From the UHGV virus genome UHGV-1824378: DNA of 10,318 nt, one strand, 5' to 3'. A program made the translations under genes and the position numbers. Under the pieces are notes generated by a model, which did no database searches, was not told the DNA's origin, and saw only the letters and a program-made list of their open reading frames with translations. The DNA comes from a virus. Position 1 is the stretch's first letter; every line of letters starts with the position of its first letter. This document shows, piece by piece, positions 1 through 10,318 of this stretch.

Positions 1-1845
1 ACTAACAAGGCTGGTAAGTCTATTCAGTACCGTACCCGCGATCCTGAATCATGGACCTATACGCTTGATATGAACCAGTTTAACGGCCTTTCCCGTGAAT
101 TGACGGTAGAAGTATCGGCTAAGGGCTATAACAACTCAGAGAGCGCCCCAGCGCGTTTAGTGGCTATCAACCCACAACATAAGCCGATGAAAGGTTTTAG
201 TGCGCGTGGTGGCTTTAATACTGCGTTTGTTAGCTGGGCGGATGACGTAGAACATGACTATGCAGGGTCAATCATTCAGTATGCAACCGATAACACTTTC
301 TCCGATGCAAGGGCAGTGACTACCAATAGCGTTAGTCATACTTCCTTTGATTTGGCTGACGGTGATTATTATATCCGTGGTGCTCACTACGATATTTTCG
401 GTATGGGTGATGCTGTTTGGTCTGAACCGTATTTCATGCAAATGAAATCTACCATTAGCTGGGACGATCAGGACAAAGAAGCACTGGAAGACCTGATTGG
501 TTTACAAGATCGCTTAGATGAAACCATCGCGGATGCTATTGCTCAAGCTGGCGCTAATGCCGATGCTAAGATTGATGCAATGCATAAACAGATTACTACC
601 GAAACCGGAAAGACGGTCCAAGCCTCAGCCGATACTCTCAAGAGTCTGATTGCTACCAGTGAGCAAGCAAGCTCTACTAAGATTGATCAGGTTAAAGCTG
701 AACTGAAAGGCGATATTACGTCGGAAGTTAGCGCATCTGCTACTACGCTGAAACAAGCAATTGCTACCAGTGAGGCGGCAAGCGCAAGCAAGATTGATCA
801 AGTTCGGGTAGAAATGGATGGCAAGATTGCTGGTGTTAACCAAGAAGCGGACGTTAAGATCGATGCTTTGAAGGGAACCATTAACAGCAAATATAATCTG
901 GCAGTTAATGCAGATGGTCGTGTGGCTGGTATTCACATGAGCGCAACCAATGATCCGGCAGAACCGACGAGAATCATCTTTACGGCTGATAAAATTGCGG
1001 TAGCTCCACAAGACGGATCGGAAGTTTGCCCGTTTGGTATCGAAGGTAACAAGGTTTATCTCGATAATGCCATGATTCGCAATGCTGCAATCGGTACAGC
1101 CCAGATTAACGATGCGGCTATTACTACCGCTAAGATCGGCACAGCCCAGATTAACGGCGCTCACATCCAACACGCACAGATCGGAACAGGTCATATCATT
1201 GATGGCTCTATCGATAATGCTAAAATTGGTAACTATATCCAGTCTTATAACTGGAATGGTAACGATGGATGGTATATCGGCAAAGATGGCACTTGTCATT
1301 TTAGACACGCTAATATTCGTGGTCATTTGGTGGCTGATTCCGGCGAAATGAACAACGTAACGATTAATTCAAGTTGCCGCATTTTGGGTATGCTTGATGC
1401 TAATCAGGTGCGTGGTGACTTCGTGAAAGCTATTGGTCGTCGATTCCCACATTGGGACGAAAACCCATCATTGGGCTATCCCGGTTATCCGCAAGGTACA
1501 ATCACTGTTCGAATTGAAGATGATCACCCGTTTGATCGTCAGATTATCGTTCCGGCTATTAGCTTTGGTGGTCTTAATGCGCGTGAAGGCTCGAATAACA
1601 ATACTTACTATGATAACTGTCGCTTGATTGTTCGCAAGAACGGTGCTGAATTATATAACCGTGCATATGGTAGACAGACTGGATTGTATAGTGCTGTTAT
1701 TGATATGCCAGCCGGACACGGACCAGTTACGCTAACTTTTGAAGTAAGTTCAAGCGCAATCAACAACTGGACTCCCAGCACATGGATCAGCGATCTAACG
1801 GTAATGGTAACTAAGAAAGCCGCTACGGGTATTTCTGTTTCTTAA
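1..1845 (+). CDS. Tail fiber / tail-tip host-specificity protein, C-terminal portion (5'-truncated by window edge)
   Basis: Frame 1 is open from nt 1 with no stop in 1-69, so track ORF 70..1845 is the 3' part of a longer gene. Product has an FN3-like segment (FNTAFVSWADD...YYIRGAHYDIF), about three 37-aa coiled-coil-like tandem units (KID...TLK..IATSE) and 15-aa beta-helix-like repeats (IGTAQINDAAITTAK / IGTAQINGAHIQHAQ / IGTGHIIDGSIDNAK), an architecture typical of phage tail fibers or gpJ-like central fibers. Terminator follows. Family assignment is by recollection, not search. Confidence 0.7.
   Translation, partial: TNKAGKSIQYRTRDPESWTYTLDMNQFNGLSRELTVEVSAKGYNNSESAPARLVAINPQHKPMKGFSARGGFNTAFVSWADDVEHDYAGSIIQYATDNTFSDARAVTTNSVSHTSFDLADGDYYIRGAHYDIFGMGDAVWSEPYFMQMKSTISWDDQDKEALEDLIGLQDRLDETIADAIAQAGANADAKIDAMHKQITTETGKTVQASADTLKSLIATSEQASSTKIDQVKAELKGDITSEVSASATTLKQAIATSEAASASKIDQVRVEMDGKIAGVNQEADVKIDALKGTINSKYNLAVNADGRVAGIHMSATNDPAEPTRIIFTADKIAVAPQDGSEVCPFGIEGNKVYLDNAMIRNAAIGTAQINDAAITTAKIGTAQINGAHIQHAQIGTGHIIDGSIDNAKIGNYIQSYNWNGNDGWYIGKDGTCHFRHANIRGHLVADSGEMNNVTINSSCRILGMLDANQVRGDFVKAIGRRFPHWDENPSLGYPGYPQGTITVRIEDDHPFDRQIIVPAISFGGLNAREGSNNNTYYDNCRLIVRKNGAELYNRAYGRQTGLYSAVIDMPAGHGPVTLTFEVSSSAINNWTPSTWISDLTVMVTKKAATGISVS
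568..900 (+). repeat. Imperfect tandem repeat inside tail-fiber gene, about 3 units of 111 bp (37 aa)
   Basis: Units begin with aagattgat at 568, 679 and 790 (period 111 nt). 15-nt identical core attgctaccagtgag at 649-663 and 760-774. Protein units KIDAMHKQITTETGKTVQASADTLKSL / KIDQVKAELKGDITSEVSASATTLKQA / KIDQVRVEMDGKIAGVNQEADVKIDALKGT. Confidence 0.6.
1090..1269 (+). repeat. 45-bp (15-aa) periodic repeats inside tail-fiber gene, beta-helix-like
   Basis: Near-identical 22-mers atcggtacagcccagattaacg (1090-1111) and atcggcacagcccagattaacg (1135-1156); further units start at 1180 and 1225 (atcggaacagg, attggtaac). Encodes IGTAQIN-type repeats. Confidence 0.6.
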
Positions 1846-3855: not shown

Positions 3856-3879
3856 AGCGCCTCTAGTGGGCGCTTTTTT
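3856..3879. terminator. Rho-independent terminator between convergent operons
   Basis: Stem agcgcc (3856-3861) / ggcgct (3869-3874), 7-nt loop, then T6 (3874-3879) on the plus strand. Sits between the plus-strand stop at 3849 and the minus-strand stop at 3881, so may act in both directions. Confidence 0.7.
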
Positions 3880-3880
3880 G

Positions 3881-5371
3881 TTATATAGCAATTGTTTTAG
3901 TTGCATATCTGAACTTGTCGGTTAGATAATATCGGATTCTCTCAAGTGCATGTTTTACCGCATAATTTTTATGCTTGACTTTTCCGTTACGACCGAATAT
4001 ACACAGATGATCGATAAGATCCCAGACCGTTGCAATATCCTTAGAACCATGTTTACGCAATGCACGACCGATACTCTGACGAACGATAGTTGATTCCTTC
4101 ACTGGATGACCGAAAATAACATGGTGCAAGTTCTTAATTGAAACACCAGTAGAGAATACACCATAAGACGCAACACAAATGATCCCTGTGTCACCCTCCG
4201 CCATTTTCTTAAATTCATCACGTTCTTCTGTCTTAACTCCACCGTCAATATAATAAACCTTGTCGTGTACCTTCTGTAACGCGTCATACATAAGTTTTCC
4301 ATGCTTAGTATTGCGGAACATAAGGAATACGTTTTCACCCTTCTTAGCGAGTTTTAGCGCCAAATTACAAGCAAACTTATTACGTCGTGGGTTAGACGTA
4401 ATATACTTGATCTCTTCCGCATATTCTCGCCCCTTAACCGCGCTACATTCCTCATCGGTATAACGAAGGAAAAGACAGTTAATTTTCAGTTTTGTCACCT
4501 GCCCTTCTTCCATCAGGCGGTCAATACTCACGATCTTAGAAATATCACCGAAAAGCCCGACATACTGCATTAAATGGCACTTTGATTCTTTCGGGGAACC
4601 AGTCATACCGATCTTAAACTGGCAATGATTCATTCCGTTAATGATATTGGTAATATTTTTGGCACTAGCCTTATGCGATTCATCAACTATCAACATTCCA
4701 TATTGTTTGAACCATTCAGGAGGCATCTTGCACGCTGATTGCCAGGTACTAACCGTGATTAACCTGTCTCCCGGATGTTTCCCGCTACCACTCATCATTG
4801 TATGAATTGCTTCATAAGGGAATAACCGATAATCGATGAAATCATCCCTCATTTGAACCACTAGCGATGTAGTCGGGACAATGATTAACACCTTTCCGGT
4901 GTAATGCTCTAAGTACCAACGAGACAGCATACAAGCAATCAATGACTTTCCGGCACTGGTAGGAAGAACCAGCATTCTACGGCGATTGTGGATACCCTGA
5001 AAGACTGCTTCACGCTGATACCAGTAAGGATTGATTTTATTGGAACCGGAATACACTTCTAAAGAGTCAATCCACGAATCAATCTGTTCTTTGGTTACAT
5101 CTTCCTTCTCAAGTAATCGCGGGTCAATCCAGACTGAATAGCCCATATTTTTAACGAAGACACCCAATGTTTTTAATAGTCCAATTGGTAGGGTATTTTC
5201 ATGCGTAAACAGTCTTATTCGTCCATCCCAGCCGGAATACTTGTAGCGGGGGCTAAACCTAGCCCCTTCAACCTCAAACGAGAAATAATCTCTTAATTCC
5301 ATTCCGATAGAAGGAGAGCAATCAACCTTAACGAAACTGTAATCTTGAAAATGAATTTTAATATCTTGCAT
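3881..5371 (-). CDS. uvsW: UvsW-type SF2 DNA helicase (T4 UvsW-like)
   Basis: Walker A LPTSAGKS, motif II DESH, motif III TGS, motif VI QSIGRALRKHG. N- and C-terminal regions resemble T4 UvsW as I recall it (MQDIKIHFQDYSFVKVDC..., ...VWDLID...). I place the start at ATG 5371 (SD ggag upstream, overlaps upstream stop as TAATG); the track ORF starts at GTG 5380. Confidence 0.88.
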   Translation of the reverse strand: MQDIKIHFQDYSFVKVDCSPSIGMELRDYFSFEVEGARFSPRYKYSGWDGRIRLFTHENTLPIGLLKTLGVFVKNMGYSVWIDPRLLEKEDVTKEQIDSWIDSLEVYSGSNKINPYWYQREAVFQGIHNRRRMLVLPTSAGKSLIACMLSRWYLEHYTGKVLIIVPTTSLVVQMRDDFIDYRLFPYEAIHTMMSGSGKHPGDRLITVSTWQSACKMPPEWFKQYGMLIVDESHKASAKNITNIINGMNHCQFKIGMTGSPKESKCHLMQYVGLFGDISKIVSIDRLMEEGQVTKLKINCLFLRYTDEECSAVKGREYAEEIKYITSNPRRNKFACNLALKLAKKGENVFLMFRNTKHGKLMYDALQKVHDKVYYIDGGVKTEERDEFKKMAEGDTGIICVASYGVFSTGVSIKNLHHVIFGHPVKESTIVRQSIGRALRKHGSKDIATVWDLIDHLCIFGRNGKVKHKNYAVKHALERIRYYLTDKFRYATKTIAI

Positions 5372-5940
5372 TAGTTCCACTCCACACTTGCAATATTCTT
5401 TATATTGTTTAGTGATTTATTGCAGTAGTGGAATGTTTCAGTTTTGCCGTATTCAATCCCGCCTATACCCACATCCAGTAATCTCTTTATTGCTCTTTCA
5501 GTGGCTAAAGCATGTTTCATTGATGGCATTTCACCAGCAAAGACAATATCAAAGTTATGACCGGGATTGCGTACACCCAGATTAACACGTCGCTTGATGA
5601 TTGACTTTGTAACACCAAATTTACCAATATCCCCTGATTTCATTACATAGAGATAAGGCACACCCGCTTTATATTGAAAGTAATCACTATTGAAGCAAAC
5701 ACATCGTTTACCTTCATTAAGCAGGTTAGTAGCTGATTTGTCGGCTCTATTACCGCATCGGGTACATGTTAGAGCAATTCTTGAATGAAGCCCTTTAAAC
5801 TCACCCAGAAAGCCATGAAAGACTAACGGTAAGTCCTTCTCTTTGATGTGAGTCAGAATGCGTTGTTCTAATGCCGATGGAGTTACAGCACGGGAGGATT
5901 TAGGAGTAAAAACAATATCTTTAGCCATTACTGGAATCAT
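5371..5940 (-). CDS. Zinc-ribbon + GIY-YIG-superfamily (T5orf172-type) nuclease-like protein, homing-endonuclease-like, 189 aa
   Basis: ATG at 5940 with SD gtgagg. CxxC...CxC cluster (CTRCGNRADKSATNLLNEGKRCVCF) followed by YLYVM...GKFGVTKS...RR...ERAIKR...GKTETF, which matches the T5orf172 / GIY-YIG-like signature as I recall it. Stop overlaps helicase start, implying translational coupling. Confidence 0.6.
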   Translation of the reverse strand: MIPVMAKDIVFTPKSSRAVTPSALEQRILTHIKEKDLPLVFHGFLGEFKGLHSRIALTCTRCGNRADKSATNLLNEGKRCVCFNSDYFQYKAGVPYLYVMKSGDIGKFGVTKSIIKRRVNLGVRNPGHNFDIVFAGEMPSMKHALATERAIKRLLDVGIGGIEYGKTETFHYCNKSLNNIKNIASVEWN

Positions 5941-6002
5941 ATAGACCTCACTTTTTTAACTTATAGGCATAACCTCAATATGGTTGGTTTGGGATTTAGG
6001 GT

Positions 6003-6035
6003 CGCGTATTATACACATTCAGATAGAGAATGCAA
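6003..6035 (-). promoter_or_regulatory. Candidate sigma70-type promoter for the nuclease-helicase operon
   Basis: Minus strand reads TTGCAT (6035-6030), 16-nt spacer, TATAAT (6013-6008), then ACGCG (6007-6003), about 65 nt upstream of ATG 5940. The TATAATACGCG 11-mer recurs at 9051-9061. Confidence 0.4.
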
Positions 6036-6055
6036 TAGTAAGACAATTTTCTCTA

Positions 6056-6062
6056 ATAAATA
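6056..6062 (+). promoter_or_regulatory. ATAAATA heptamer, candidate T4-type late promoter core
   Basis: aATAAATA at 6055-6062, 32 nt upstream of ATG 6095. Confidence 0.3.
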
Positions 6063-6094
6063 GTAGTGAGCTTATTATTTTAGAGGAAACTACT

Positions 6095-7270
6095 ATGAAA
6101 CTTGCTTACGCTGCCGAAATTCCTTTTGTTAAGAAAACTCGCGGTTTATCGCCGGAAGAGTACCAACAACGAATCATCGCTAAACTGGAACCTGCTTTCG
6201 TATTTGGTGGATTTATCCTACCGTGGAAGGGTAATCACACTTACTTTCGAATCTACAATTTAGATACACAAGAATATAAGGACTACAAATTACGCAAACT
6301 GGAAGATACTAACGGGGGTGAGTTATTCCAGACTGAAAAGGCTGTATGGTTGAAAATGGAATCTCGTTGTAATGAGAAGGGAAAGAAATTCCTCGGATGG
6401 CAAGGAGAATGGAAAGGGCGAAATAGAACGAAAGCCCGTGTTTTGTGCCCTGAACACAATCAAATCATGACGCCATCTCTATTACATGCTCTCAAGGATG
6501 ATTTTGATTTTGATTGTAAAATCTGTATGGCTGAAAAATCCCAACGGGTAAGAAGTGGCAAGACTTTTGATGAAGTTATTAAGGACAAAGAGACAATCAT
6601 CAATGCACGTTGCGAGAGTACGCCTTACACCTTCAAAGGATTCATCATAAACACCCCACACCTAAAGGATGTTAAATTTAAAACCTATTGCAAGTCACAT
6701 AACCACGAATGGGAATCTCATTTAAGATGTGCTGATTCTTTCACTTGTCCGCTTTGTATTAAAGACCAACTGGTGCAACTGTCTAACCGGACTTATCAGG
6801 GTAAGGCTAGTTTCTACATTCAATTATTAGATGACAAATTTATTAAATTTGGAATCACTACCCGAAAACCAGAAGAACGAATGAGAGAACAAACCAGAAA
6901 GAGCAACTTCACTCACCGCTTAATCTTTACTCATGAGTTTGAGGATGGTTGGAAAGCTGCCGATTTAGAGCATGAAGTAAAACAACGCTTCAAGACTCAT
7001 GCAGCACCCTACAAAGATTTCAAGGATGGATGGTCGGAAACTCTGACTATTGATGAGTTACCACACTTACAGCAACTGGTTTATGACTACCTAACCAATC
7101 AACCGGACGAGGCTAATATGTGGGTATCTCCGAAAGATGTATTTGATGACGATACATTCAAGCTACATACTCACTTCTACGGCATCAATAAACCGGAATT
7201 TTTCTGTATTGATGACGACAGTCCTGATTTAATGGATGAATACTTTAATACGCTCTTAGACGCTGCCTAA
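6095..7270 (+). CDS. Tandem zinc-finger + GIY-YIG-superfamily (T5orf172-type) nuclease-like protein, 391 aa
   Basis: ATG at 6095 with SD gaggaaa; the track ORF begins at an upstream TTG (5984) that I do not favour. Two Cys/His modules (CPEHN...CKIC; CKSHNHEWESHLRCADSFTCPLC) then FYIQLL...KFGITTRKPEERMRE...EHEVKQRFK...GWSETL, paralogous to the C-terminal half of the 5371-5940 protein. Confidence 0.65.
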   Translation: MKLAYAAEIPFVKKTRGLSPEEYQQRIIAKLEPAFVFGGFILPWKGNHTYFRIYNLDTQEYKDYKLRKLEDTNGGELFQTEKAVWLKMESRCNEKGKKFLGWQGEWKGRNRTKARVLCPEHNQIMTPSLLHALKDDFDFDCKICMAEKSQRVRSGKTFDEVIKDKETIINARCESTPYTFKGFIINTPHLKDVKFKTYCKSHNHEWESHLRCADSFTCPLCIKDQLVQLSNRTYQGKASFYIQLLDDKFIKFGITTRKPEERMREQTRKSNFTHRLIFTHEFEDGWKAADLEHEVKQRFKTHAAPYKDFKDGWSETLTIDELPHLQQLVYDYLTNQPDEANMWVSPKDVFDDDTFKLHTHFYGINKPEFFCIDDDSPDLMDEYFNTLLDAA

Positions 7271-7285
7271 CGCAATTAAATTCAA

Positions 7286-7307
7286 AAGGGGTACAGATGT
7301 ACCCCTT
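7286..7307. terminator. Bidirectional hairpin terminator between convergent genes
   Basis: Perfect palindrome aaggggtac-agat-gtacccctt (7286-7307). Minus strand has the U-tract (plus-strand ttcaaaa 7281-7287); plus strand has a weaker T-run after it. Confidence 0.6.
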
Positions 7308-7343
7308 AAAGTGTTTAGCTCGTTATACGTCGATTTAGGCCGC

Positions 7344-9023
7344 TTAAATTCCAAATTCCTGTAATGGACCTGGTATTTCCTCTTCTGGTTTCCAGTTCTT
7401 ATCTGTCAGCATGTCTAAACATGGATGCAAAACAAGCCCGTTACTTTCCAGAATCTGTCTATCATTGATAGTTTTCAAATCAATGAATATCCGGCCTTTC
7501 CTCGTTCCTCTTGAATTTTCTATTACAACTCTCTGGGTCTTTCCATCGATGTATTCCAGTACAAACAAGTTTTTGTTTCTGTCAATCCTGCTACACCCGA
7601 TCCGCTTTAGAGCTTGCTTAATCTTAAACCGGACCTTTAGTCGTTCCTCGTTGTAAACATCTTCTAAATCAAATTCTGCGAGCTTCTCCCAGCCTTGAGA
7701 GTCAACAGAATACATTTCCTCTTCTGCCATCTTGATCTGATTGTAGAGTGTTTCACGCTCGCTATTGAGGGTAGTAATCTGATCGGCTAGCTCCTTCGTT
7801 GCTCCTGTCATAGCAGAAAGGGCAATCAGGTTATCAATCTTGCGTGATATTTCATCAACCTGTACTTTCAACGCCGGAACCGGATTAGCCTTATCCTCAG
7901 CAATCCAGATTTTATCAGCCAGCAATTGCAATACAGCTTTCTCTAATTGATCCCCTCGAAAACTCCAGTTTGGATGCTCGCAATCAAGTCTACGTGAACG
8001 GGTCGCATCACATGTATAACGATACTGGTCAGAACGTTTGTTTGTTCCCTTCACTTTAACCATAGCGCAACCGCAATGATCACATTTCAATAGGCCAATG
8101 CCACTAAGCAGGGGGATCGGTTTAACTTCTTCCTTGTCTCCAAAGTTCCATGCTCTAGCACCAATATTTTTCTTAAGGTGATAGAACGTAGCATCATCAA
8201 TAACACGAGGGTAATAATCCTTTAACTCATAGTTAACACCATCAACAGAGACCTCCTTGATACCAATCAAAGCGCGGGTATGGAACAACCTTTCAACCAT
8301 TGCCCGTGACCATTTTGAATGCTTCTTGTTGCTTACTGCTGGTGGTGGTGCATATGTCTCGTTAAGGTGATCCAGTATTTCGGCGGTTGAACGTCCATTC
8401 TTCCGTAATTCCACAATCTCCTGAACAACAGGGAAGTATGTAGGATGAGGCAACACATAACCGGAAGTGGTATCAGTCCACCACATATTCTTTCCAACTT
8501 CCTCGATAGCCACTGCCGGATTTTGTGGATTTTCTTGATGAGCTTTAATCTTAATCAATGCGCTTGAGTTAGTACGATTGCGCTTAGTCTGACTTTCCTC
8601 ATTACCACGGATGAATAAAAGGATGGAGAACATCAGGTCCATCGGATTAGCGGTAACAGTATCCAGCGAGTAGATCTTGTTATCCATGCCAGTAACAATG
8701 GTTATTCCCCTACGGATGATTGAAAGGAATAACTCCTGCGCACTGACAATATCGGCACGGGATAAGCGGTCCAAGTTTTCAATGAATAGCCAGCTACCAA
8801 CAGGAACGGATCTACCAATTGCATCAAGGAAACGAGATAGCGCCCCTGTTTTAGAGTTAGCACCCTTAAACGCAGATACACCCAGATCCTGATAATCATT
8901 TACCAGTTCAAGGTCATACTTTGCCGCAACCTCTCTCGCCATCCTGATTTGTCGTTCATAACTCGAACCATCATTCTGACGCATAGACGAGAAGCGAATA
9001 TACGAATACAGTTTAGTTTTCAT
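7344..9023 (-). CDS. Large serine recombinase (serine integrase / resolvase superfamily), 559 aa
   Basis: N-terminal catalytic domain motifs YSYIRFSSMRQ (catalytic Ser), DLGVSAFKG and ENLDRLSR; Cys-rich zinc-ribbon (CDHCGCAMVKVKG...YTCDATRSRRLDCEHP); C-terminal coiled-coil. The size and domain order match large serine recombinases. Confidence 0.88.
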   Translation of the reverse strand: MKTKLYSYIRFSSMRQNDGSSYERQIRMAREVAAKYDLELVNDYQDLGVSAFKGANSKTGALSRFLDAIGRSVPVGSWLFIENLDRLSRADIVSAQELFLSIIRRGITIVTGMDNKIYSLDTVTANPMDLMFSILLFIRGNEESQTKRNRTNSSALIKIKAHQENPQNPAVAIEEVGKNMWWTDTTSGYVLPHPTYFPVVQEIVELRKNGRSTAEILDHLNETYAPPPAVSNKKHSKWSRAMVERLFHTRALIGIKEVSVDGVNYELKDYYPRVIDDATFYHLKKNIGARAWNFGDKEEVKPIPLLSGIGLLKCDHCGCAMVKVKGTNKRSDQYRYTCDATRSRRLDCEHPNWSFRGDQLEKAVLQLLADKIWIAEDKANPVPALKVQVDEISRKIDNLIALSAMTGATKELADQITTLNSERETLYNQIKMAEEEMYSVDSQGWEKLAEFDLEDVYNEERLKVRFKIKQALKRIGCSRIDRNKNLFVLEYIDGKTQRVVIENSRGTRKGRIFIDLKTINDRQILESNGLVLHPCLDMLTDKNWKPEEEIPGPLQEFGI

Positions 9024-9029
9024 ACCATT

Positions 9030-9072
9030 TCCAAAACAAAAAGCCCCTACCGCGTATTATAACGATAGGGGC
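9030..9072 (-). terminator. Rho-independent terminator (minus strand) downstream of the 9089-9334 gene
   Basis: Stem gccccta (9043-9049) / taggggc (9066-9072) with 10-nt loop; on the minus strand it is followed by TTTTTGTTTT (plus 9030-9042). Confidence 0.55.
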
Positions 9073-9084
9073 ATTGGTTAGTAA
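9051..9084 (-). promoter_or_regulatory. Candidate sigma70-type promoter for the serine recombinase, embedded in the terminator hairpin
   Basis: Minus strand reads TTACTA (9084-9079), 17-nt spacer, TATAAT (9061-9056), then ACGCG (9055-9051), about 30 nt upstream of ATG 9023. Same TATAATACGCG 11-mer as at 6003-6013. Confidence 0.4.
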
Positions 9085-9088
9085 GTCA

Positions 9089-9334
9089 TTAATATTTCTT
9101 TCCAGTTAGTTTTGCATCACGTTTATTAATATCCTCGATATGACTCCATACACACGCAGTAATAAAGTCGTCATCGTCACCAACTCCGGCAACCTGTGCT
9201 AATTCAGTACACAGTTGATTTAAAGAAGGTGCAACGGCAGCACGCTTGACACTATCACCCTGTACATATTGTTCGGCATTTGCAGCACCAACCAAACCCA
9301 GAGCAAGAACGATACCCGCGATAATCTTTTTCAT
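9089..9334 (-). CDS. Small secreted (signal-peptide) protein, 81 aa
   Basis: ATG at 9334 with SD gagga. N-terminus MKKIIAGIVLALGLVGAANA-EQY has a basic n-region, hydrophobic core and AxA cleavage site; mature part about 61 aa with two Cys and an acidic DDDD patch. Confidence 0.6.
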   Translation of the reverse strand: MKKIIAGIVLALGLVGAANAEQYVQGDSVKRAAVAPSLNQLCTELAQVAGVGDDDDFITACVWSHIEDINKRDAKLTGKKY

Positions 9335-9368
9335 AGTAGAATTTCCTCTTGTTATTTGAATTACGATA

Positions 9369-9376
9369 TATTTATA
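9369..9376 (-). promoter_or_regulatory. TATAAATA octamer (minus strand), candidate T4-type late promoter
   Basis: Plus-strand tatttata at 9369-9376 is TATAAATA on the minus strand, 34 nt upstream of ATG 9334 and just downstream of the stop at 9380. Confidence 0.3.
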
Positions 9377-9379
9377 TCG

Positions 9380-9505
9380 TTAAAAATTGATGCTAATTAC
9401 CAGACCAAACACAACCGCACCAATCAAATCAATCCAGTTAATACACAATCCGCTATATTCTTTCTTGAATGTCTTAGATGAAATGCCATCATGAAATTGT
9501 TTCAT
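9380..9505 (-). CDS. Putative small tail-anchored membrane protein (41 aa), not in ORF track
   Basis: Hand translation of the minus strand gives MKQFHDGISSKTFKKEYSGLCINWIDLIGAVVFGLVISINF with stop TAA at 9380-9382. ATG lies 3 nt after the upstream small-ORF stop. Short, so speculative. Confidence 0.3.
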   Translation of the reverse strand: MKQFHDGISSKTFKKEYSGLCINWIDLIGAVVFGLVISINF

Positions 9506-9508
9506 TGC

Positions 9509-9589
9509 TCACCCCATACTAACGACAAGATAAGAAAGACTAATCATAGTTGTGAGACTACCTCCCACGAATGAGATAAAAGCTAACAT
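9509..9589 (-). CDS. Putative hydrophobic micro-protein (26 aa), not in ORF track
   Basis: ATG at 9589 preceded by SD ggaga at about 7 nt; translation MLAFISFVGGSLTTMISLSYLVVSMG. Sits directly after a terminator, so expression would need read-through. Speculative. Confidence 0.22.
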   Translation of the reverse strand: MLAFISFVGGSLTTMISLSYLVVSMG

Positions 9590-9603
9590 GTTTGATTCTC
9601 CAG

Positions 9604-9632
9604 TTTAAAAAGCGGTGGGAATTACACCCACC
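9604..9632 (-). terminator. Rho-independent terminator (minus strand) after the 9647-10033 gene
   Basis: Minus strand reads GGTGGG-TGTAATT-CCCACC followed by GCTTTTT (plus-strand stem 9614-9619 / 9627-9632, T-tract complement 9607-9611), 15 nt past the stop at 9647. Confidence 0.65.
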
Positions 9633-9646
9633 AAATTAGAAATTAA

Positions 9647-10033
9647 TTAAGCACGAACGATGGTCAGAGTATCCAGCAAACCTTTTTCGTATAATTCGAA
9701 ACACGTTTTATATTGCTCAATCTGGAAACCATAGCGGGTGATCTTATTCAGTAGAACAATCGCGCTATTCTCATCTAGGTATTGTCCTTGCTTACCAATT
9801 ACATATGACTCGCGGGATAGTTTCAGCTTACGGAAACCTTTAACACCTAATTCCTTAGCCACCGCTTTAATCTCTTTAATCTCACCCTCAGCCGCAACAT
9901 ATTCAGCGTCGATAATCTCAGGTGATGATCTCAGTGCTACCAGAACTAAGGCCATTGCTTCTTCTTCGGTACGCGCAACACCAGCTTTCTCGAAAGTCAT
10001 CTCACCAAATTTACGAATCATGATATTGAACAT
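9647..10033 (-). CDS. Hypothetical protein, 128 aa
   Basis: ATG at 10033, 12 nt after the upstream stop; protein has balanced composition, whereas the overlapping plus-strand ORF 9738..10199 is Ser/Leu-rich antisense-type. Terminator follows. Confidence 0.6.
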   Translation of the reverse strand: MFNIMIRKFGEMTFEKAGVARTEEEAMALVLVALRSSPEIIDAEYVAAEGEIKEIKAVAKELGVKGFRKLKLSRESYVIGKQGQYLDENSAIVLLNKITRYGFQIEQYKTCFELYEKGLLDTLTIVRA

Positions 10034-10045
10034 TGTTTTGCTGCC

Positions 10046-10318
10046 TTACTTCTTGCTGATAAACTCTTTAGCGATAAAGTTGATTACTTCTTTCAGCTTC
10101 TTGTCTGTATCGATGCACGCCGGTAATTCTTCTTTAATCTCCTGCGGCAGATACACATTGCCTTTAAAGTGGAGGAAACCATCATTACCAATCATGTAGG
10201 AGAACATCCATTCACAATCGTTATCCGCTTCCCAGAACGCCACGGCCTCATCGCCAATCAAGGTAATGTCCATGTTGCGACGTGCTGCGTAGTTGATGAT
10301 TGCTTTACCGATGTTCAT
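10046..10318 (-). CDS. Hypothetical protein (90 aa from the ATG at the window edge; may extend beyond)
   Basis: Open frame to the last window base, where nt 10316-10318 cat = ATG. Cannot tell whether this is the true start because upstream sequence is outside the window. Confidence 0.5.
   Translation of the reverse strand: MNIGKAIINYAARRNMDITLIGDEAVAFWEADNDCEWMFSYMIGNDGFLHFKGNVYLPQEIKEELPACIDTDKKLKEVINFIAKEFISKK

Follow-up and report, generated by a model that had tools for sequence, protein, structure and literature searches.

The 10,318-nucleotide stretch analysed here (virus genome UHGV-1824378; called the window below) is the right-hand end of a temperate E. coli prophage of approximately 36.8 kb, which splits the host gene ycdX. 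It encodes a large serine recombinase of 559 amino acids (aa) at 7344-9023 on the minus strand; domain, alignment and attachment-site comparisons strongly support this protein as the conventional integrase of the prophage. The original prediction had proposed that the recombinase and a neighbouring nuclease-like gene form a mobile cassette bracketed by two identical 11-bp direct repeats. The region is instead explained, with high probability, by the end of a prophage carrying a serine integrase, a separate cassette of nuclease and helicase genes, and 11-mers that match at chance level.

Pfam confirms the predicted identity of the recombinase. It contains a Resolvase domain (PF00239; E 9e-15, residues 6-153), a Recombinase domain (PF07508; E 5e-9, 36.9 bits, residues 198-287) and a Zn_ribbon_recom domain (PF13408; E 1e-10, 42.2 bits, residues 310-368); the latter two score above their curated cut-offs. 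The protein also matches the PHROG 95 integrase family (E 6e-63) and carries a DRLSR motif. In a phmmer search against solved structures, the full recombinase gave no match at E <= 0.001, while the N-terminal domain alone matched PDB 3GUV. Alignment of this domain places Ser12 (YIRFSSMRQ) opposite the conserved catalytic-motif serine of 3GUV (YTRVSTSIQ), so the catalytic serine that the original prediction wanted checked is present; it is kept in all ten alleles examined (10/10). Among 5,426 complete E. coli genomes, the recombinase is found in 57 and is full length in 56 of these. Every related prophage examined retains it. Its gene is located 1.3 kb from attR, and no second integrase is annotated or was detected in the prophage, including its left arm.

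The crossover was located by comparing attL and attR of a related prophage, L001 (strain 2017.18.04CC), with the uninterrupted ycdX gene of K-12, which represents attB. At attR it lies 43-44 bp past the end of the window, and the shared core is limited to the 2-bp sequence AA. The ycdX attB is CATCCCGGA-AA-TCCCAAATATG; the reconstructed attP is GATATTAGGG-AA-CCCGAACGTAGTC. The arms of attP form an imperfect inverted repeat, the inner arms being TTAGGG-AA-CCCGAA. A 2-bp core with imperfect inverted arms is the expected signature of a serine integrase, whereas the direct repeat left by a tyrosine integrase would be longer. Serine recombinases use imperfectly palindromic sites of approximately 40-50 bp and leave no flanking direct repeats.

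The surrounding genes place the window within its prophage. In L001, a C-terminal fragment of ycdX begins 40 bp past the window end and is followed by ycdY, ycdZ and the csg genes. Tail, capsid, portal and terminase genes are found upstream of the window-equivalent region, and the N-terminal fragment of ycdX, adjoining ghrA, is approximately 36.8 kb distant. Chromosomal prophages in 60 of the 5,426 genomes match the whole window at 88-98% identity. Integrase dimers would bind attP and attB, and Ser12 would cut both sites at the central AA dinucleotide; the subunits would then rotate, and religation would yield attL and attR. Excision would need a directionality factor. These steps of integration and excision are those expected of the family; the att junctions themselves were observed.

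Integration is not confined to ycdX. The relatives L010, L011 and L012 are integrated in hicB; their integrase genes are located at 10343-12022, 10240-11919 and 8001-9680, respectively. Across residues 156-480, which include the recombinase domain and the zinc-ribbon/coiled-coil region, pairwise identity is 98-99% among the three hicB alleles and only 84-91% between these and the ycdX alleles. The recognition part of the integrase co-varies with the site of insertion. Residues 1-155, which make up the catalytic domain, are mosaic and vary without regard to the site; that domain of L012 goes with the window, and that of L006 with L010 and L011. The catalytic domain recombines separately from the recognition domains. 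Around the core, the attB sequences of the two sites are related (GGA-AA-TCCCAAATATGA in ycdX; GGC-AA-ACCTAAACAGGA in hicB), and the attR-side arm of attP is nearly identical between ycdX- and hicB-type prophages. The fallback offered by the original prediction, a conventional integrase, is strongly supported by the domains, the att sites and this clustering of alleles by site. The ycdX/hicB pair is also a compact, naturally occurring test case for att-site specificity, with relevance to integrase engineering.

The prophage belongs to an uncharacterised E. coli family. When the whole window was compared with phage records by megablast, the only matching part was the uvsW gene, which encodes a helicase described below; a sensitive blastn search of 5900-9200 against phages gave no match. 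No sequenced phage isolate therefore stands for this prophage at the DNA level. A literature search on a ycdX or hicB serine-integrase prophage, and on uvsW in temperate phages, found nothing relevant. The E. coli satellites described in PMC10448857 were considered as relatives and rejected; they are 13-kb elements and are unrelated.

The repeat that prompted the cassette proposal is real. A sequence search confirms two, and only two, occurrences of the 11-mer CGCGTATTATA in the window, both on the plus strand (6003-6013 and 9051-9061). Both copies are intergenic (spacers 5941-6094 and 9024-9088), and exactly two genes lie between them, at 6095-7270 (plus strand) and 7344-9023 (minus strand); RefSeq annotation of the relatives concurs. 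The two genes converge on a shared palindromic terminator, as was claimed; this is the hairpin at 7286-7307. There is no third copy of the 11-mer in the window at up to one mismatch, and none in the rest of the prophage.

The estimate that such a match would be improbable (approximately 1e-3) is not upheld. On the plus strand of the window, 39 distinct 11-mers occur at least twice, against a mean of approximately 20 in Markov-1 simulations. In a simulation of the intergenic DNA (884 nt of spacer, 36% G+C), the chance that any two intergenic regions of the window share an exact direct 11-mer is approximately 0.13; for either orientation it is 0.25. The pair is also poorly kept. Ten loci were compared base by base, and the exact pair is present only in the window and L004. 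Copy 1, which is located in the divergent spacer between a 189-aa and a 391-aa gene and reads TATAATACGCG on the minus strand, has a mismatch in L006 and is absent from L002, L003 and L005; in L010 its position reads TACAAT (minus strand). Copy 2 has a mismatch in L001 and L010, is missing or replaced in L006, and corresponds to unrelated sequence in L011.

Copy 2 is part of another structure. The transcript of an 81-aa gene upstream of the integrase gene ends at an intrinsic terminator (9033-9072, minus strand) with an 11-bp stem and an 8-nt loop, followed by TTTTTGTTTT; copy 2 supplies the loop and three bases of the stem. The hairpin and T-run (9072 to 9043) fold at -21.2 kcal/mol (z = -3.4), and 0 of 200 shuffled sequences fold as well. 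The terminator ends 10 nt upstream of the integrase start codon. No comparable structure was found at copy 1. The 11-mers are a chance-level match and are not element boundaries.

If 6003-9061 were a discrete mobile element, the recombinase and the nuclease gene would excise, insert or invert as a unit between the 11-bp direct repeats. This proposal draws on a repeat that is exact, direct and intergenic and that encloses just two genes, including the recombinase gene; in addition, two variant breakpoints, at 6014 (L003 and L005) and 9047 (L006), fall within a few bases of a copy. However, a synthetic junction in which a single 11-mer joins the two flanks is found in 0 of 5,426 E. coli genomes; all matches cover one half only. 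The two genes of the supposed cassette are not co-inherited, since 57 genomes carry the recombinase but only 13 carry the nuclease gene. No variant breaks at both repeats; the breakpoints are located at 3883, 7257-7273, 5479/6013 and 6119/7259. The 11-mer pair is at chance level and is not conserved, and the true att sites have been located at the ends of the prophage. Judged by the refuting conditions that the original prediction itself had set, a self-mobilising or recombinase-delimited 3-kb cassette fails, and it is abandoned as extremely improbable. A number of observations nevertheless weigh against the preferred account, in which the window is a prophage end with a serine integrase and the 11-mers are a chance match. 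The attP site was rebuilt from attL and attR of a relative that is 95% identical (L001), not from the window's own genome. L006 is integrated in ycdX, yet its recognition domains are only approximately 90% identical to those of the window; allele and site are therefore not one-to-one. The breakpoints at 6014 and 9047 are close to an 11-mer copy. This proximity is taken here to be coincidental, given that module boundaries are intergenic; it is still formally conceivable that short sequences like the 11-mer favour recombination. The 11-mer was also considered as the driver of the 6014 breakpoint and rejected: the microhomology, TATACaCATTCAG (6009-6021), pairs with 5465-5479 and has only five bases in common with the 11-mer. 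Finally, both copies read TATAAT on the minus strand, upstream of a minus-strand gene, and the substitutions in L001 and L006 spare this hexamer.

The last observation leads to a second reading of the 11-mer, as a shared promoter element. TATAAT followed by ACGCG would be the -10 hexamer and discriminator of two leftward promoters; copy 1 would drive the operon of the 189-aa gene and the helicase (start codon at 5940), and copy 2, within the terminator loop, would drive the integrase (start codon at 9023). Both copies are located 28-63 nt upstream of a minus-strand start codon, and -35 hexamers at fitting spacing can be picked out by eye (TTGCAT-16-TATAAT at copy 1; TTACTA-17-TATAAT at copy 2). 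TATAAT is left intact by the L001 substitution in copy 2 and by the L006 substitution in copy 1, and a promoter for the integrase would otherwise not fit between the terminator and the start codon of that gene. In contrast, a consensus promoter scan of 5850-9450 found 0 sites, where 9.5 are expected in shuffled sequence; what speaks for the promoters is therefore inspection by eye. L010 has TACAAT at copy 1, L011 and L006 are unrelated at copy 2, and AT-rich spacers yield chance matches containing TATAAT more readily than any other kind. A promoter role for the 11-mer is possible, but the balance is against it. Such a role is compatible with the integrase explanation and differs from it only on whether the 11-mer has meaning.

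The exchangeable module of this region is a different segment, approximately 3884-7256, which contains the UvsW helicase gene, the 189-aa gene and the 391-aa gene. In L002 and L012, which lack the helicase and these nuclease genes, homology to the window stops at 3883 and resumes at 7257-7273. The limits of the replaceable unit follow from these breakpoints, which fall at two terminators. The left anchor is the terminator hairpin after the endolysin gene (3857-3879; GCGCC...GGCGC and a T-run); the right anchor is the bidirectional terminator hairpin (7286-7307) between the convergent 391-aa and integrase genes. L002 has a different cassette, which includes a 332-aa T5orf172-family gene, and L012 has a deleted remnant of the L002-type cassette.

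Other relatives show gene-by-gene loss. L003 and L005 keep the helicase; each nuclease gene has been lost by a separate deletion between short repeats. Deletion of 5479-6013 removes the 189-aa gene and occurred between TATACCCACATCCAG and TATACACATTCAG (TATACcCACATyCAG repeats). Deletion of 6119-7259, bounded by two ACGCTGCC repeats, removes the 391-aa gene; the reading frame is preserved, and what remains is a stub of seven codons, MKLAYAA*. In L006, the 391-aa slot is occupied by a 337-aa allele with only 29% identity, and a third T5orf172 gene is found on the far side of the integrase. Across the 5,426 genomes, the 391-aa and 189-aa genes are each present in 13 and the helicase in 17, compared with 57 for the recombinase. 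The cassette is probably swapped among prophages by homologous recombination at the conserved flanking terminators, and is eroded gene by gene via microhomology deletions. The 391-aa gene is functionally unrelated to the integrase and belongs to this separate, optional cassette.

The 391-aa gene (6095-7270, plus strand) and the 189-aa gene (5371-5940, minus strand) are both predicted to be free-standing homing-endonuclease-type genes of the CapR/T5orf172 kind. For the 391-aa protein, Pfam confirms the zinc-finger and T5orf172-type identity given in the original prediction: CapR (PF21817) scores 40.4 bits, MUG113 27.5 bits (cut-off 22.3) and T5orf172, of the GIY-YIG subfamily, a marginal 20.5 bits (cut-off 20). 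It matches the PHROG 681 endonuclease family (E 2e-43). Two CapR-type zinc fingers (CPEH...CKIC and CKSH...CPLC) are present, together with a nuclease core in which FYI...KFGIT is found and GWSETL provides the conserved glutamate context. Alleles in the 391-aa slot of L002 and L006 are only 27-30% identical to it, and its closest phage homologues, at approximately 30% identity, are found in Krischviruses. The 189-aa protein has a CapR match of 25 bits in Pfam and matches PHROG 681 (E 1e-18); it contains one zinc finger (CTRC...CVC), KFGVTK, and KTETF as the conserved glutamate context. Its gene overlaps the helicase start by 10 nt.

T5orf172 homing endonucleases with CapR-type zinc fingers have been surveyed in ICP1 and other phages (PMC10448857; PMC8096241), and the architecture of CapR with T5orf172 is that described for phage homing endonucleases (PMC10448857). 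Genes of this type are unusually dense in the prophage family, with up to three T5orf172/CapR genes flanking the integrase. Examples in relatives are located at 13267-14313 and 10473-11486 in L006, at 10321-11319 in L002 and at 473-1246 in L012. The O55:H7 strain DEC5A has a NUMOD3-domain gene among its tail genes.

The third gene of the cassette encodes a UvsW-type helicase of 499 aa (3881-5380, minus strand) with UvsW_N, ResIII and Helicase_C domains in Pfam. It shares 80-90% nucleotide identity with uvsW of Krischviruses, which are RB49-like phages of the T4 type. Along the whole protein, amino-acid identity to the UvsW of Krischviruses G5211 and Whisky is 81-83%; between these two it is 84%. 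Of the 57 prophages of the family, 17 carry the helicase, and in L006 a 168-bp uvsY fragment (7932-8099) is found beside it. Homing endonuclease genes likewise flank uvsW in these Krischviruses: a GIY-YIG gene is located 4 nt upstream of it in G5211, and a T5orf172-type gene separates it from uvsW.1 in Whisky. The Whisky homologue was considered as an instance of the divergent arrangement seen in the window and rejected; it is downstream of uvsW on the same strand, and its position is not conserved.

The original prediction made the good remark that a UvsW helicase and homing-endonuclease-like genes are out of place beside an integrase. This odd mix of genes would be explained by capture of a T4-like (Krischvirus) uvsW block by a temperate prophage, together with T5orf172 genes. 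From the homology, we infer that the uvsY-uvsW block moved from a T4-like phage into the prophage lineage with, or via, such nuclease genes.

The cassette at 3884-7256 could alternatively be a prophage-borne device against incoming T4-like Krischviruses, acting at the uvsW locus of the phage. The nucleases would cut the incoming phage DNA near uvsW, and the prophage uvsW would act as repair template or immune copy; the outcome would be phage exclusion, or a reservoir from which nuclease genes jump between temperate and virulent phages. The identity of the helicase to Krischvirus UvsW (81-83%) is about that found between two Krischvirus UvsW proteins (84%), a uvsY fragment has been kept in L006, uvsW of Krischviruses is flanked by homing endonuclease genes, and the nearest phage homologues of the 391-aa protein are from Krischviruses. 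In addition, domesticated T5orf172/CapR proteins act in conflict between phages and satellites (PMC10448857). However, a PADLOC scan returned only generic SF2-helicase similarity for the UvsW-like protein and nothing for the nucleases or the recombinase. The Krischvirus homology is on one side only, with no phage match in 5900-9200; the nuclease genes are being deleted in several lineages, and the cassette is present in only 17 of 57 prophages. A targeting function is thus unlikely, and an optional cassette captured in part from a T4-like phage is preferred.

Three small genes are located between the integrase and attR on the minus strand (9089-10318). They encode proteins of 81 aa (9089-9334), 128 aa (9647-10033) and 90 aa (10046-10318); none has a Pfam match, and the 128-aa protein matches PHROG 14908. 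The 81-aa protein has a clear signal peptide (MKKIIAGIVLALGLVGAANA), and its gene, which has its own terminator and lies between the integrase and attR, resembles a moron. This gene is swapped for a T5orf172 gene in L006 and for a longer gene in the hicB-type prophages. In the spacer between the 81-aa and 128-aa genes, L003 has an indel containing a small open reading frame (ORF) of 342 bp at 10672-11013, corresponding to window positions 9320-9363, which is flanked by a duplication of approximately 44 bp. In many relatives homology is lost at window positions 9645-9648, and the genes adjacent to attR are swapped there.

At the other end of the window, 70-1845 (plus strand) encodes the C-terminal portion of a tail tip protein of 1,258 aa. 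This is the most variable of the conserved genes across relatives (80-97% identity) and has internal repeats 111 bp apart (e.g. 649/760, 566/677); the variability and repeats suggest host-range variation. The prophage overall has no recognisable repressor or replication gene except a Rha-family regulator. In its left arm, outside the window, a region of approximately 1.4 kb (L007 7451-8838) has no ORF of at least 60 aa, no annotation and no Rfam match.

As originally posed, the finding is an ordinary one: a false lead, the repeat-bracketed recombinase cassette, has been removed, and the genes are assigned to two familiar categories, namely the serine integrase of a prophage and homing-endonuclease genes of the free-standing type. 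The capture of uvsW and the ycdX/hicB pair of integrase alleles are modestly interesting side results. A T4-like uvsW in a temperate prophage, beside homing-endonuclease genes, is a concrete case of DNA flow from virulent to temperate coliphages at boundaries marked by nuclease genes.

The integrase resembles those of phiC31, Bxb1, TP901-1 and A118 and the SprA integrase of SPbeta in several respects. All have a resolvase domain with a serine nucleophile, a recombinase domain and a zinc ribbon; the gene is located near one end of the prophage, and insertion is inside a host ORF. SPbeta SprA likewise integrates within a host gene. The crossover is 2 bp and non-palindromic in each case, with imperfect inverted repeats and no long direct repeat at attL and attR. 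In contrast to these known large serine integrases, the window integrase targets ycdX or hicB of E. coli, and it is only approximately 27-32% identical to any integrase in sequenced phages.

The cassette resembles the moron or accessory slots of lambdoid and other temperate phages, in which optional genes lie between conserved intrinsic terminators and recombine through their flanks; its position between the lysis genes and the integrase is also shared. It differs from them in its cargo: instead of host-fitness factors, it carries genes of DNA metabolism and selfish nuclease genes, both of virulent-phage origin. The helicase shares full length and the UvsW_N and SF2 helicase domains with UvsW of the T4-like Krischvirus/RB49 group. 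Unlike the Krischvirus gene, it is carried by a 37-kb temperate prophage, its 3'-terminal 120 nt (approximately) have diverged, and it lacks the uvsW.1 and uvsY neighbours, except for the uvsY remnant in L006.

The nuclease genes share with the known T5orf172/CapR homing endonucleases (PMC10448857; PMC8096241) the order of zinc fingers followed by nuclease domain, and a free-standing, intergenic location. Patchy presence among near-identical genomes, position at an exchange boundary and diverged alleles in one slot are further common features. The nuclease genes of the window differ in that they are found in a temperate prophage beside an integrase, not in a virulent phage. In addition, the alleles without these genes (L003 and L005) are microhomology deletion scars that keep remnants, and not clean empty sites.

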